A program made the position numbers and the translations under genes. A stretch of DNA of 64,000 bases from Prochlorococcus sp. scB243_498I20 (GTDB lineage: Bacteria > Cyanobacteriota > Cyanobacteriia > PCC-6307 > Cyanobiaceae), in the NCBI GenBank assembly GCA_000635015.1, contig JFMR01000114.1, positions 10,164 through 74,163 of the forward strand, given 5' to 3'. Shown here piece by piece: positions 55,185-64,000 of this stretch. A model generated the notes under the pieces. It saw only the letters and a list, made by a program, of their open reading frames with translations, was not told where the DNA came from and searched no databases. Position 1 is the stretch's first letter. Each line of letters begins with the position of its first letter.

Positions 55185-55228
55185 AGCGGATGAAGAGATT
55201 CGAACTCTCGACATTCTCCTTGGCAAGG
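55185..55228 (-). repeat. 3' half of tRNA-Gly(GCC) (att junction)
   Basis: Reverse complement CCTTGCCAAGGAGAATGTCGAGAGTTCGAATCTCTTCATCCGCT; no D-arm or 5' acceptor strand upstream. Confidence 0.9.
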
Positions 55229-60540: not shown

Positions 60541-60822
60541 AAATATTGTTAATTGCACATTTTATAGATCGAATTTTCCAAAAAACTGTCAAACCTAAGA
60601 CCTAATTAACAGAGAGCACTATGTCGTAGAGAAGAGAGTCAACCGAGACACCCAAAATTCTATTAAAGATATTTTCTATTTCGATCAGAAACACAAATCA
60701 AAAAGGCATCGATTCATGCAGGCGAACCTTGGCTTACTACATCCAAGGCCAGCTTTATTCATTAGTAAAAGTATATATATTTTGAGAGCGTTTGCAACAA
60801 GTATTTCTAAGTCTTTTCTATT

Positions 60823-60842
60823 ACTTACCAACACTTACCAAC
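60823..60842 (+). repeat. Tandem 10-bp repeat ACTTACCAAC x2
   Basis: Seen directly, 12 bp left of site A copy 1. Confidence 0.65.
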
Positions 60843-60854
60843 ACTCATAAAAAA

Positions 60855-60876
60855 GGTGCAAGTAGCAAGCGTTTCA
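60855..60876 (-). repeat. Cassette site A copy 1
   Basis: + strand GGTGCAAGTAGCAAGCGTTTCA; TCA is the TGA stop of ORF 60874-61290. Confidence 0.85.
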
Positions 60877-61290
60877 TCTAGGAAGTATTCTATTTAATTC
60901 GGGATATTCAATTCTTAATTCTTCTATAAATGCATCAACGGTCTTTGATATCTCGTCAGTAGTATTCAAAATAGAATTTTTATATTTTAGATATTCGGAA
61001 ACTTGAAATAATTTCATAGTTGATTTTGTTAAAAGTAATGTTGCAAGAGGAGATTTATCTGCCAATTTAGTTGAAGGAAAATATTTTATAGTTTCAGGAT
61101 AAGTTTTTTCCATATCCTCAATATAGTCTTCTATCTTTTCATTTAATTCATCATATTTTGATGATAAAAACTTTTTGGTATTTAAATATTCAAAACCTGC
61201 GAATAAAAAACCAATAGGAAAACTTAAAAATAATATTGAAAGAGAAAGCCTAAGAAGATTTTGGGAAAATTTTTCCATAGAAATAATCAA
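60874..61290 (-). CDS. Hypothetical membrane-anchored protein (cassette ORF)
   Basis: One N-terminal TM helix, acidic helical domain. Confidence 0.7.
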   Translation of the reverse strand: MIISMEKFSQNLLRLSLSILFLSFPIGFLFAGFEYLNTKKFLSSKYDELNEKIEDYIEDMEKTYPETIKYFPSTKLADKSPLATLLLTKSTMKLFQVSEYLKYKNSILNTTDEISKTVDAFIEELRIEYPELNRILPR

Positions 61291-61394
61291 TTAAATTTAT
61301 TTAAAACATATCAAGGTTAAAAGTAAGTAAAGCATGTAATATTTTTGCTTTCTTCTTCCGATCTACTGAAATATTTAATTTTTATAATTTCTAT

Positions 61395-61408
61395 ATCGAC
61401 TGTCAATC
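61395..61408 (-). repeat. Cassette site B partial copy
   Basis: ATCGACTGTCAATC identical to part of 63048-63091. Confidence 0.75.
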
Positions 61409-61418
61409 GTATTTAATA

Positions 61419-61444
61419 TAGCGGTGCAATTAGTAAGCGTTTCA
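61419..61444 (-). repeat. Cassette site A copy 2
   Basis: + strand TAGCGGTGCAATTAGTAAGCGTTTCA; TCA is the TGA stop of ORF 61442-61837. Confidence 0.85.
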
Positions 61445-61837
61445 ATTTTTATTGTTAACTAATCCATAGATACATAAAAGAGGATTCACTATCAAAACAA
61501 TCCAGAAAGGAGGAGGGGGTCCTCCATCAACAATTGTCCCAGCGTTAAAAGTATTAAATAGAGCTACTGCCAAAAAACAAAACATCAAAGCTAATTCACC
61601 TGATAAAACTTTTCTTAAGGAGGCTTTATCTTTAATGGAACTACAAATAATCAATAAAAAACCTATTCCTAAATTACTAGCAGCTACAACATCTGCAGTA
61701 CCTCTAACAAGAAGCAATGTTTCACTTGAAGCGTTGCCTGCAATAGTTTCCACTGAAAAAATTAGTAGAGAAATAATTAACAACCCCAACAGGATATGAA
61801 GCGCTCCAGTAGTTTTTAAAATATTTTTTAACTTCAT
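61442..61837 (-). CDS. Hypothetical integral membrane protein, ~4 TM (cassette ORF)
   Basis: Four hydrophobic segments; GGPPPPFW motif. Confidence 0.8.
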   Translation of the reverse strand: MKLKNILKTTGALHILLGLLIISLLIFSVETIAGNASSETLLLVRGTADVVAASNLGIGFLLIICSSIKDKASLRKVLSGELALMFCFLAVALFNTFNAGTIVDGGPPPPFWIVLIVNPLLCIYGLVNNKN

Positions 61838-61882
61838 AAAAAAAGGAGCTTATTTCCCCCTTATTGTAGATCGACTGTCAAT
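61838..61882 (-). repeat. Cassette site B full copy
   Basis: AAAAAAAGGAGCTTATTTCCCCCTTATTGTAGATCGACTGTCAAT directly abutting the ATG. Confidence 0.88.
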
Positions 61883-61886
61883 TTAG

Positions 61887-61901
61887 AGTAGTAAGCGTTT
61901 C
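61887..61901 (-). repeat. Cassette site A copy 3 (truncated)
   Basis: AGTAGTAAGCGTTTC, 4 bp from site B. Confidence 0.8.
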
Positions 61902-62111
61902 GTTTAAAACAAAGTTCTAGTTTTTTCGTTTTTTTTCATTAACCTTCCACATTTTCTTGAACATATAATTTTTATGTTCATTGCAATACATTTAGCAGAA
62001 GTAATAATGCGTAAGTGTATATTAACTATACAGAATCCGTTCCAAAATTCTGTAGGTTTAAGGTCTTCCCTATCTTTCAACTCCTATTAATAGTTGAAAA
62101 TAAAAACCTAT

Positions 62112-62294
62112 TTACCACCACATACCGAGATTCAATTTTTTTGCATCTCTATTACATGCAAGCTCACACTCGTTTAACTCTTTGACTGAGAGAGCCTCAA
62201 GTATTCTTGCCATATCAATAGAAGATAGTTCTCCATTAACGTTCCACTTAAGTGTAGTTTTACGTTGAGGTGTGTTTTTTGTTTTTTTCATCAT
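62112..62294 (-). CDS. Small hypothetical protein
   Basis: 60-aa ORF, TLKWN..GELS.IDM.RIL...C.L.C pattern looks protein-like. Confidence 0.6.
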   Translation of the reverse strand: MMKKTKNTPQRKTTLKWNVNGELSSIDMARILEALSVKELNECELACNRDAKKLNLGMWW

Positions 62295-62442
62295 GACTTT
62301 TTAAGGTCGGGATAATTAAATAGCATGATTATTTAAAATTCTCAAATATTTATTGAGTAAAAGAGTATAAATTACCAAAAAAATGTGAAGTTTTTATAAG
62401 TTAAAGAATTAAATTTATTTATCAAGAATCTAGAAATTCAAT

Positions 62443-62468
62443 TAGCCGTGCAAGTAGTAAGCGTTTCA
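62443..62468 (-). repeat. Cassette site A copy 4
   Basis: TAGCCGTGCAAGTAGTAAGCGTTTCA immediately after the TAA at 62469-62471. Confidence 0.85.
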
Positions 62469-63047
62469 TTAAGGAAGATACTTATTCCTATTTATTGGTT
62501 CATTTTGGAGGATTCTCATGGCTTCTGGTGAGTTAGTAACTCCTATTATTGCGACCAAAATAACACCTAGTGCTAACAAGGCATATGCTCTCTGTTTATT
62601 TGCTTTTACCTTTCTAATACTTTCTTCTTCATAAACTTTCTTAAAATGAGCTTCCCATTTTTCAACAAAAGTAGGTTCAACTAACTTTTCATCAATTTCT
62701 TTATTTTTTGCCTCCGCTTCGCCATTAAATTTATTTTTAAATTCTGGGAAATCATTATGGCTTAAAGCCCATTATTTCCACGATGTCCATTCTTGTAATT
62801 GTGTTTGTTTTGCTTGACCTTGAATTAAAAAAGCGTCTCCGCCAACATCAGCACCTGCCATACCCGTAATTGCTCCAGCTATGGCTCCATCACGCCTGCT
62901 TGTATTTTTAGGAGGCCTTGCTTCTACATCATGTAATTTTAAAAATTCAACAACTATTACATCTAAACCAACTAAGGGAACTTTTTTTAATTCAGGATTA
63001 TCTCTGTAAATTCTGGTTAATTCAGATTGTTTCCATTCTTTAGTCAT
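62469..63047 (-). pseudogene. Hypothetical protein with in-frame premature stop (cassette ORF)
   Basis: Frame reads ...EWTSWK-TAA(62772-62774)-WALSHNDFPEF... and stays open for 100 more codons incl. a TM helix to TAA 62469. Confidence 0.75.
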
Positions 63048-63090
63048 AAAAAAGAAGCTAATTGCCCCTTATTGTAGATCGACTGTCAAT
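63048..63090 (-). repeat. Cassette site B full copy
   Basis: AAAAAAGAAGCTAATTGCCCCTTATTGTAGATCGACTGTCAAT; 26-bp core identical to 61857-61882; 6 bp from integrase stop, abuts ATG. Confidence 0.88.
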
Positions 63091-63096
63091 CTTAAA

Positions 63097-64000
63097 TTAG
63101 ACACCTACTTCAAAGGCATTTTTTTGATGTCTAGCAACAGCAGCTTCGATAGATGCTTCACTAGTCCAACGGCCGTAAAAATTTAAATGTGTTGCGGGTG
63201 TATGACCCATTGCTTCGGCGGCATCTCGAATTGAGATTGGATTATCACTAGCTTTGTGAGCTATCCAAGCCCATCTATGACGAAGGGAATATGGCGTTAA
63301 TCCTTTAGTCTTTTTAGCTATCTGTTTCCAAATAATTGTTCTATTTAATTGTTGGGTTAATGTTGCACCAACATCAGCAAATCTTCTCTTTTTCTGAACC
63401 ATCTTAATTTGATTTTCGATCGCTTCTGGAAGTCCAACTAAACCGCTTTTATATTGTGCTACAAGCTCATTTCCTAGCCCTTCTCTGCCCAATATATCTA
63501 GTGCAAATACTCTACGAGGTGGATTCTTTTTGCCCTTATTCTGGACGTTTTTCTTGATACTTCCGACAAATAATTTATTACCATCTCTTACTTCAAGAGT
63601 GGCTAATTCTGAAAGTCTTAATCCATGCAATGCGATCAATCCGACCGCTAAATATAACTTAGGATTTGTCGCTTTTAGTGTGTCTAATAATATTGCTAAA
63701 TCAGCGTCAGATATTGGTGGAGTTACTGTATCTTCTGTAGTTCTAGTATTATCTCCGACCAGTTCTTTAGCTAAGTCTTTATGGGGTGGAAACCATCTTT
63801 CACTCATACCGTGGCGGTTGACTCCATATTCAAGAATTTTATAAACGGAATCTAAATATCTTTTTCTAGAATCTGAACCCGATGGAATATCATCAAAGAA
63901 ATTTTTAGCGTATTTTTTGACAAAATCTTCTCCCGAAGTTGGTGTAGGTTTTTTATTCATTACTTCTCTAAATCGATCAACTCTTCTAGTCCACTCCATA
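63097..64000 (-). CDS. Tyrosine recombinase/integrase (5' end outside window)
   Basis: HGLRLSEL (Arg), PYSLRH, AMGH, FY catalytic tyrosine near C-terminus. Confidence 0.92.
   Translation of the reverse strand, partial: MEWTRRVDRFREVMNKKPTPTSGEDFVKKYAKNFFDDIPSGSDSRKRYLDSVYKILEYGVNRHGMSERWFPPHKDLAKELVGDNTRTTEDTVTPPISDADLAILLDTLKATNPKLYLAVGLIALHGLRLSELATLEVRDGNKLFVGSIKKNVQNKGKKNPPRRVFALDILGREGLGNELVAQYKSGLVGLPEAIENQIKMVQKKRRFADVGATLTQQLNRTIIWKQIAKKTKGLTPYSLRHRWAWIAHKASDNPISIRDAAEAMGHTPATHLNFYGRWTSEASIEAAVARHQKNAFEVGV

Follow-up and report, generated by a model that had tools for sequence, protein, structure and literature searches.

Gene-boundary modules of high-light Prochlorococcus and the exchange of single-gene cassettes in a tRNA-Gly island

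An array of small genes separated by two short repeats, here called modules A and B, occupies positions 60855 to 63096 of a 64,000-nucleotide (nt) stretch, the window of this study, from Prochlorococcus sp. scB243_498I20 (assembly GCA_000635015.1, contig JFMR01000114.1, positions 10,164 to 74,163), whose genome amounts to 1.59 Mb in 167 contigs at 31% GC. The array lies directly behind a tyrosine recombinase gene, and the initial annotation of the window took it for an integron-like system that captures and shuffles gene cassettes at recombination sites of its own. Here we describe module B as a compact promoter and module A, from sequence comparison, as the coding start of exported proteins, and we present evidence that the genes bordered by these modules have been swapped as single-gene cassettes between islands and species, probably without the help of the integrase.

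Four A and three B copies stand where they had been reported, and a mismatch-tolerant motif scan with shuffled controls places both counts above chance: the A 14-mer, at up to two mismatches, is matched 5 times in the window where 0.23 matches would be expected, and the B 13-mer 3 times where 0.11 would be expected, counts attained by none of 100 shuffles in either case. The minus-strand order proposed earlier also holds, running from the integrase stop through B3, the first cargo frame, A4, a segment of small open reading frames (ORFs), A3 with B2, ORF131, A2 with B', and ORF138 to A1 (Table 1), and A and B do adjoin at A3/B2 and A2/B'. Two gene models needed adjustment. The first cargo frame is broken, as described, and comprises 193 rather than 192 codons with one in-frame stop; ORF138 is present, with its start probably at the ATG at 61278, which would make the protein 134 rather than 138 amino acids (aa) long. 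None of the cargo ORFs reaches the cut-off of a protein family in Pfam, PHROGs or NCBIfam. DNA homologous to the first cargo frame, 78-81% identical, occurs in two other genomes (G151 and G158), where the alignment ends at B3, and the frame is either a pseudogene or two ORFs.

Table 1. Coordinates of the array, of its island, and of B copies with a mapped transcription start site (TSS) in MED4. Positions are those of the window; window-equivalent positions continue the count past its end, and the last five rows use MED4 coordinates.
Feature	Position	Strand	Remarks
B3, promoter/terminator module (terminator part putative)	63048..63094	-	box 63090-63077; -10 TACAAT 63076-63071; hairpin 63070-63052; T-run; ATG 63047; predicted TSS ~63062
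First cargo frame	62469..63047	-	193 codons; one in-frame TAA after codon 91
A4 stub	62422..62469 (repeat 62448-62469)	-	ATGAAACGCTTACTACTTGCAC... encoding MKRLLLARLIEFLDS, then stop; ATG right after TAA of preceding frame
Small-ORF segment	61904..62421	-	60-aa ORF 62112-62294 and 58-aa ORF 61904-62080; no B module upstream
A3, truncated A	61888..61903	-	ACGAAACGCTTACTAC, without start codon; 5 nt from B2
B2, promoter/terminator module of ORF131 (terminator part putative)	61838..61882	-	box 61882-61869; -10 TACAAT 61868-61863; hairpin 61862-61842; ATG 61837; predicted TSS ~61854
ORF131	61442..61837	-	small hydrophobic protein; without family match; cassette dispersed widely
A2 stub, 15-nt linker and box-only B'	61395..61445 (A2 61424-61445; B' 61395-61408)	-	(TTG)KRLLIAPLY, then stop; overlaps ORF131 stop
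ORF138	60874..61290	-	N-terminal hydrophobic segment; without family match
A1 stub	60845..60877 (repeat 60856-60877)	-	MKRLLLAPFL, then stop; ATG overlaps TGA of ORF138
Tyrosine recombinase	63097..64000 in window, on to window-equivalent 64434	-	full gene 445 aa
Intact tRNA-Gly(GCC)	window-equivalent 64513-64584		78 nt upstream of integrase ORF (ARAGORN)
tRNA-Gly(GCC) 3' fragment, 44 bp	55185..55228	-	identical to intact gene; far border of 9.3-kb island
Tandem ACTTACCAACACTTACCAACAC	60823..60844	+	sole genome partner ACTTACAAACACTTACAAACAC, between tRNA-Gly and integrase start
MED4 B copy	start 1347087	+	TSS 1347115, 16 nt upstream of PMM1401
MED4 B copy	start 358211	-	TSS 358183, 16 nt upstream of PMM0377
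MED4 B copy	start 359655	-	TSS 359627, orphan
MED4 B copy	start 360017	-	TSS 359991, 20 nt upstream of PMM0379
MED4 B copy	start 1352082	-	TSS 1352055, 24 nt upstream of PMM1408

The recombinase is co-directional with the array, as first described, and its gene exceeds the window (contig coordinates C114:73260-74597). ORF calling and ARAGORN on the same contig place an intact tRNA-Gly(GCC) gene upstream of it, just beyond the window, and the identical 3' fragment of that gene forms with it a direct repeat around a 9.3-kb island, whose cargo includes a phosphonate gene cluster and a tRNA-Pro fragment. Because the integrase adjoins the tRNA-Gly gene and the fragment marks the other border, the array is one end of this tycheposon-like integrative island and makes up its variable cargo. 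The integrase matches PHROG integrase families at E 1e-13, falls below the cut-off of Pfam Phage_integrase (22.7 bits), and has a single match in NCBIfam, the archaeal XerA model, at 35.8 bits against a cut-off of 220; none of the integron-integrase families in NCBIfam matches it. It is a divergent tyrosine recombinase that most likely serves the tRNA-Gly attachment (att) site, and not A or B.

Modules B and A

In aligned copies, module B opens with the box ATTGACAGTCGATC, followed by TAnnnT, the two halves of a GC-rich stem around a loop, then a T-run and an ATG. Across 63 copies, TAnnnT falls at index 14-19 in nearly all, in most as the -10 hexamer TAAAAT, TAACAT, TAAACT or TACAAT. A palindrome ATTG-N4-TCGA-N4-CAAT once read in B fails across the family, its last part being this variable hexamer. 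The GC hairpin with T-run is found in 34 of the 63 copies as against 4 of 2000 random sites (0.2%), its stem variants differ by compensating changes (AGAGGG/CCCTCT, GGGGC/GCCCC, GGAGC/GCTCC), and an ATG lies 41-47 nt from the box start in 32 copies.

Published start sites of MED4, determined by differential RNA sequencing (Read et al. 2017, PMC5607370, supplementary tables 8-11), show that B is transcribed from within. In 5 of 12 MED4 copies a primary TSS lies 26-28 nt after the first base of the box, a position corresponding to the hairpin loop (Table 1). The coordinates can be taken to match, since gene distances in those tables agree with the ATGs in the sequence, and the coincidence exceeds chance because TSS density in MED4 is only about 0.6 per kb per strand. 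All four tables list the sites at 358183, 359627 and 359991; 1347115 is confined to the two 12-h tables, and for 1352055 one table was read. The start sites predicted for B2 and B3 in the window carry this position over. B is therefore a compact promoter, and it would place the ATG about 16 nt after the transcription start.

Start site and discriminator lie inside what looks, from the sequence, like a terminator acting on transcription that enters from upstream. Together with its A and U tracts, the complete hairpin is predicted to fold at -9 to -12 kcal/mol, that of B3 is terminator-like at a predicted -6.3 kcal/mol, and a simple terminator scan picks both B2 and B3; for transcripts from the mapped TSS, which begin past the 5' stem, no structure is predicted. 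The hairpin could thus terminate transcripts arriving from the upstream gene, while those begun at B would read on, because a start inside the loop removes the 5' half of the hairpin. The initial annotation had offered repeated promoter/terminator modules as its alternative, a description that fits B, with the terminator part predicted, and misses A, a coding start.

The 14-bp box lies at about -28 to -15, a zone that is mere spacer in normal promoters, and may be an operator. Its TTGACA is no standard -35 element: just 7 nt separate it from the -10, and a -10 at a spacing of 17 nt would not agree with the mapped TSS, which fits the -10 alone. The box-only B' has no hairpin: about 115 nt of other sequence replace hairpin and leader, in an arrangement conserved in 12 genomes, and TTGACA-17-AAAAAT offers an ordinary -35/-10 pair there (61378-61406, minus strand).

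Other identities for B were considered and set aside. No Rfam family matches it even at E up to 5, which speaks against a small RNA or another known RNA family; Yfr11, in MED4, stops immediately ahead of a B copy and is distinct from it; and a tRNA-derived att remnant is not supported, the likeness to tRNA-Asn covering about 18 nt and stopping short of the T-arm. The box is one base off the antisense of the tRNA-Asn anticodon arm (ATTAACAGTCGATC; G000:C36:62890-62903), a likeness that is probably due to chance, although a tRNA-derived origin of the box is conceivable. Separately, several B copies, at L033:5929, L041:8837, L040:3274, L036:8322, L031:4666 and in loci L058-L061, stand about 20-25 nt past short pieces similar to the tRNA-Pro anticodon arm (...GCACTAGRT...), so that some B-led genes may be the first to lie within elements targeting tRNA-Pro. 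In one sister element (L111, G066:C6, 9033-9644), a B-led cargo protein starts MDGTVYVLTNPAMPDLVKIGKTTRDV and looks like a GIY-YIG/T5orf172-type nuclease domain; a tRNA-Pro fragment region follows.

Module A reads (A/T)TGAAACGCTTACTACTTGCAC on the minus strand, with a core, ATGAAACGCTTACTACT, that encodes MKRLLL. Many copies in relatives run on as ATG AAA CGC TTA CTA CTC CCA CTA CTA GCT GCT..., encoding MKRLLLPLLAALALPTAVNA, and 18 of 46 copies open full-length proteins of 49-322 aa whose mature parts are unrelated, two of them with lipoprotein-type signals. As judged from these comparisons, A is the conserved start codon and signal-peptide beginning of unrelated exported proteins. A further 27 of the 46 are stubs of fewer than 25 codons, most often MKRLLLAPLx followed by a stop. 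The start codon usually comes directly after a stop (TAAATG) or overlaps it (ATGA), and all four copies in the window are decayed stubs of 6-15 codons abutting the preceding stop, with A3 truncated and lacking its start codon; in other genomes (loci L057-L059) the A1 position continues into a full-length gene for an exported protein. Identity among A copies is at the nucleotide level and goes beyond convergent signal peptides, because A retains the arginine codon CGC, which makes up 1.9% of arginine codons in the genome of the window. The composite of A stub, 15-nt linker and B recurs in MED4, in two further genomes (G021 and G017) and elsewhere in the same genome (C45:254830). A role of A as a terminator or structured site was rejected, for it has no pairing potential and proved to be coding.

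Movement of cassettes and distribution of the modules

For a comparison of cassette content with module boundaries, the region 60560-63100 was used as query against 201 genomes of the genus, one per species cluster. Content varies, and alignments tend to stop where modules begin or end, with breaks concentrated at query positions 1321-1326 (outer border of B2), 288-305 (A1), 826-888 (A2/B') and 1877-1911 (A4). A 1,036-bp block from A1 through ORF138, A2/B' and ORF131 to B2 is 99-100% identical in 11 other species-level genomes, where its flanks differ on both sides. Among seven genomes, identity in the core gene ribH is no higher than 80-95%, a contrast that points to recent transfer of the block. 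In closed genomes the ORF131 cassette is separated from ribH by about 207 kb, by about 715 kb and by more than 1 Mb, as opposed to 3 kb here, distances that would put it in different islands if the usual synteny of these genomes holds.

ORF131 itself has copies 84-100% identical in dozens of genomes and varied contexts. Its homologues always have B upstream (24 loci) and always an A stub downstream; upstream, 14 or more different sequences take over exactly at ATTGACAG, and the downstream side has at least 8 continuations. The small-ORF segment travels as a unit elsewhere (query positions 1328, 1414 or 1536 to 1877 or 1911), and a homologue of ORF138 in MED4 follows directly behind a canonical B at 1361462. 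At three loci (G162, G066 and G180), where the stretch from tRNA through integrase to B3 is 96-97% identical in DNA and 98-99% in protein, the first gene after B3 differs, and two of these sister loci show further A and B modules downstream. Taken together, these alignments indicate that single-gene cassettes have been swapped between islands and species at A/B modules.

The modules are not confined to integrase loci. A scan of 24 other genomes of the genus turned up both A and B in every one, grouped in a few regions per genome, with 2-15 B copies each; the genome of the window holds 21 copies of the 14-mer box, at up to one mismatch, in five or six regions. The integrase family (E up to 1e-20), by comparison, occurs in 32 of 201 genomes of the genus, with homologues 27-49% identical in 28 others than the present one. 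MED4 carries at least 12 B and 9 A copies without this integrase family, and most A/B clusters in the genome of the window have no integrase nearby, only one other, distant homologue lying near a cluster. Beyond the genus, the B 16-mer was absent from all 78 genomes examined from 63 other genera of the family. As modules at gene boundaries, A and B do not depend on any integrase; they are restricted to the high-light Prochlorococcus genus, where they gather in genomic islands. The initial annotation had tied the repeats to the integrase, and the genome search found them without it.

A phage origin of B as a promoter was discarded, as 50,697 phage records yielded no cyanophage match. Only three low-GC IMG/VR contigs (L043, L046 and L047) contain true B modules complete with hairpin, T-run and ATG, one 6.6-kb contig having three; their source is probably island or tycheposon DNA of Prochlorococcus that entered the viral fraction.

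Crossovers do not appear to fall at one point. At least five B variants precede copies of ORF131 that are at least 99% identical, combining two or three types of box with two of -10 and two of hairpin, and all four -10/hairpin combinations occur; since one fixed crossover point cannot give such mosaics, exchange must have taken place at several places inside B. Downstream of ORF131, the copies part ways 12, 17, 23 or more than 38 nt into A, or within the next B, and A has no hard end, because the sequences after the stub still read as decayed signal peptides (AP-L/I/F...). The mosaic structure of B and the soft end of A favour homologous recombination over a site-specific enzyme. The modules would supply 20-60 bp of near-identity between otherwise unrelated genes, and B-ORF-A cassettes would be exchanged between islands and species by homologous recombination or gene conversion through them, as has been proposed for the promoter-early stem-loop (PeSL) motifs of T4-like phages. 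Such recombination through the modules seems the most likely mechanism. The overall explanation that we consider probable, with a good deal of room for doubt, is that the array is cargo of a tRNA-Gly island in which B acts as promoter and putative terminator, A as signal-peptide start, and exchange proceeds through both without the integrase. More tentative, at somewhat less than an even chance, is its extension to a genus-wide exchange network free of integrases, in which A and B are kept both as expression and export signals and as portable recombination anchors while genes hop between islands and species.

Several points weigh against this explanation. The anchors, at 14-45 bp, are short for RecA-dependent double crossovers, and breakpoints at gene borders are to be expected under any mechanism, since selection keeps whole genes. 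As many as 29 of the 63 B copies lack a good hairpin, and only 5 of about 12 MED4 copies have a TSS at the predicted place, the rest being perhaps silent, decayed or condition-dependent. We know of no protein that binds the box. As to novelty, no description of the A or B motif was found in the searchable literature, part of the Prochlorococcus literature lying outside it; within the same literature, full-text searches for the A and B sequences returned unrelated primers only, nothing was found on mobile promoters or intergenic repeats in Prochlorococcus, and the island repeat PRE1, which the initial annotation had named as a candidate, has no usable description.

Alternative explanations and the borders of the island

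A and B could instead be expression and export signals only, spread by duplication and selection without any causal part in recombination; breakpoints would then fall at the modules simply because rearrangements survive when they keep whole genes. B does work as a promoter and A is a signal-peptide start, and intergenic spacers in the islands are tiny and consist almost entirely of the two modules. What such an account handles poorly is the near-identity of modules, at the nucleotide level and including the rare arginine codon of A, around unrelated genes in many islands and species. The mosaic B variants ahead of near-identical ORFs show exchange inside the module, and non-functional A stubs have been carried along with cassettes. 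We therefore regard signals alone as an unlikely explanation, though one to be taken seriously.

Alternatively, a dedicated enzyme acting in trans might move B-ORF-A units, with the 14-bp box or the end of A as its recognition site and without a linked integrase. The sharp 5' edge of B in its many upstream contexts, the conservation of the box far beyond the needs of a promoter spacer, the efficient transfer implied by 99-100% identity of the block across species, and anchors that are short for ordinary homologous recombination would all suit such an enzyme. No candidate enzyme is linked to the modules, however; the mosaic B variants argue against a single fixed crossover point, the stub ends of A decay gradually as signal-peptide remnants rather than stopping at one nucleotide, and a functional operator box would be expected to give an equally sharp edge. 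An enzyme in trans thus seems to us quite improbable, and the stronger version of the genus-wide network, in which the 14-bp box is the site of a dedicated enzyme, if anything slightly more so.

An integron-like role of the adjacent recombinase, in which cassettes would be captured and reshuffled through site-specific events at A and/or B, is very improbable: the array does open with B right after the integrase stop, cargo differs directly past B3 in near-identical integrase loci and A and B coincide with cassette borders, but the modules are far more widely distributed than the integrase family and mostly stand apart from any integrase, the integrase already owns a classical att site at tRNA-Gly with its 44-bp direct repeat and fits no integron-integrase model, the cassettes are not promoterless, given that B is a mapped promoter, no attC-like imperfect palindrome is present and A has no predicted structure, and crossover positions vary inside both modules. 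The notion of cassette capture and shuffling in the initial annotation accordingly survives in part: the ORFs are exchangeable and have their borders at A and B, whereas the distribution of the modules and the integrase's own tRNA site tell against A and B as its recombination sites or as an integron analogue. Cassette shuffling is supported, with another likely mechanism than the integrase and on a genus-wide scale; for the original claim of a new integron-like recombination system the outcome is negative.

The inner end of the array shows some further features. The tandem ACTTACMAACACTTACMAACAC occurs twice in the genome, once between the tRNA and the integrase and once just past A1, and these copies of CTTACMAA-CA-CTTACMAA, at 60823-60844 and window-equivalent 64433-64454 (C114:74597-74618), bracket integrase and array; both are kept in G162. 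The CTTACMAA pair resembles the HLR1 (RpaB-type) direct repeat, and equally could represent arm-type sites of the integrase or the ends of an inner element. A tRNA-Gly fragment was sought beside the distal tandem copy and none was found; a candidate at 60560-60850, which would have made integrase and array a separate element, was rejected with an alignment score within the range of shuffled controls. About 190 nt past A1 (60664-60850) are 94% conserved in G162 at the same place relative to integrase and array, and the genomes diverge beyond. This stretch contains a 49-aa ORF and a hairpin, CCTTGG-CTTACTACAT-CCAAGG (60727-60748), with an inverted partial A copy.

Comparison with known systems

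The surface lipoproteins vlp, vsp and vsa of Mycoplasma combine a conserved 5' end and signal peptide with variable mature parts, and recombine at the conserved 5' region. Module A likewise provides a start and signal peptide, conserved at the nucleotide level, that is common to proteins with differing mature parts. In the Mycoplasma systems, however, the mature parts are repeat variants of one family, whereas those behind A are unrelated proteins; neither an inversion system nor a phase-variation tract was seen here, and many copies of A are non-coding stubs.

With integrons the array shares co-oriented, small, unrelated genes that are separated by repeats beside a tyrosine recombinase, and a content that varies between relatives. 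In every defining trait examined it departs from an integron. The integrase is not of the IntI type and is co-directional with the array, where that of an integron is divergent; there is no attI and no Pc promoter, each cassette having its own promoter; and the repeats occur genus-wide without the integrase. The initial annotation had itself remarked that the repeats are unlike attC and the integrase not divergent, and rightly so: no attC palindrome or similar folded site was found, the only hairpin, that of B, lying 5' of the ORFs with the mapped TSS in its loop.

The island as a whole is best compared with tycheposons, the tRNA-anchored islands of Prochlorococcus (Hackl et al., bioRxiv 10.1101/2020.12.28.424599). 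As in these, a tyrosine recombinase sits beside a tRNA gene (78 nt), a partial-tRNA direct repeat (44 bp) marks the far end, and the cargo consists of nutrient genes (the phosphonate cluster) and small genes without an assigned role. The seven targets listed in the preprint (Pro-tgg, Ser-tga, Ala-ggc, Thr-ggt, Arg-tct, Met-cat and tmRNA) do not include Gly-gcc, although the label 'Ala-ggc' may or may not mean the same gene. No primase, helicase or polymerase family was detected with Pfam, PHROGs and NCBIfam among the array ORFs and the integrase (60.5-64.4 kb, within an island that starts at 55.2 kb), and many tycheposon elements have no replication module (bioRxiv 10.1101/2020.12.28.424599). 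The main text of the preprint contains neither the word 'promoter' nor an A- or B-like motif, and ascribes the turnover of island genes outside elements to 'more stochastic processes' (bioRxiv 10.1101/2020.12.28.424599).

It is here that the modules could matter. Most flexible genes of Prochlorococcus reside in genomic islands, and tycheposons explain the arrival of elements at tRNA genes but not the reshuffling of single genes. If each small gene receives a promoter of its own, a putative insulating terminator and shared homology from a lineage-specific pair of modules, that reshuffling would have a concrete mechanism, and an integrase-free network, if true, would explain the turnover of island genes outside tycheposons in Earth's most abundant phototroph. 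The layout of B, with its start in a terminator-like loop and a 16-nt leader, also makes it a compact, putatively insulated part that could be put to use elsewhere, expression parts for Prochlorococcus being few.

The closest known analogue of B is the PeSL cassette of T4-like phages (Arbiol et al. 2010, PMC2839356; Comeau et al. 2014, PMC4122927), a comparison that rests on function and claims no similarity of sequence. Each is a short, conserved composite of promoter and terminator-like stem-loop between genes, is located in hyperplastic regions (here, a few island regions) where it flanks small ORFan genes, and is associated with insertion, deletion and replacement differences between close relatives; a role as portable homology for modular shuffling has been proposed for PeSL (PMC2839356, PMC4122927) and would apply to B as well. 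Sequence, host and layout differ: B resides in islands of a cellular chromosome, with no match among the 50,697 phage records; PeSL has a canonical -35/N17/-10 promoter beside its stem-loop, whereas B starts inside the loop and has the 14-bp box in place of a normally spaced -35; and the second module, A, is a coding start rather than a regulatory motif. A and B are thus apparently a lineage-specific and so far undescribed variant of a known principle, and the pair would represent, in a cell, what PeSL motifs are in T4-like phages.

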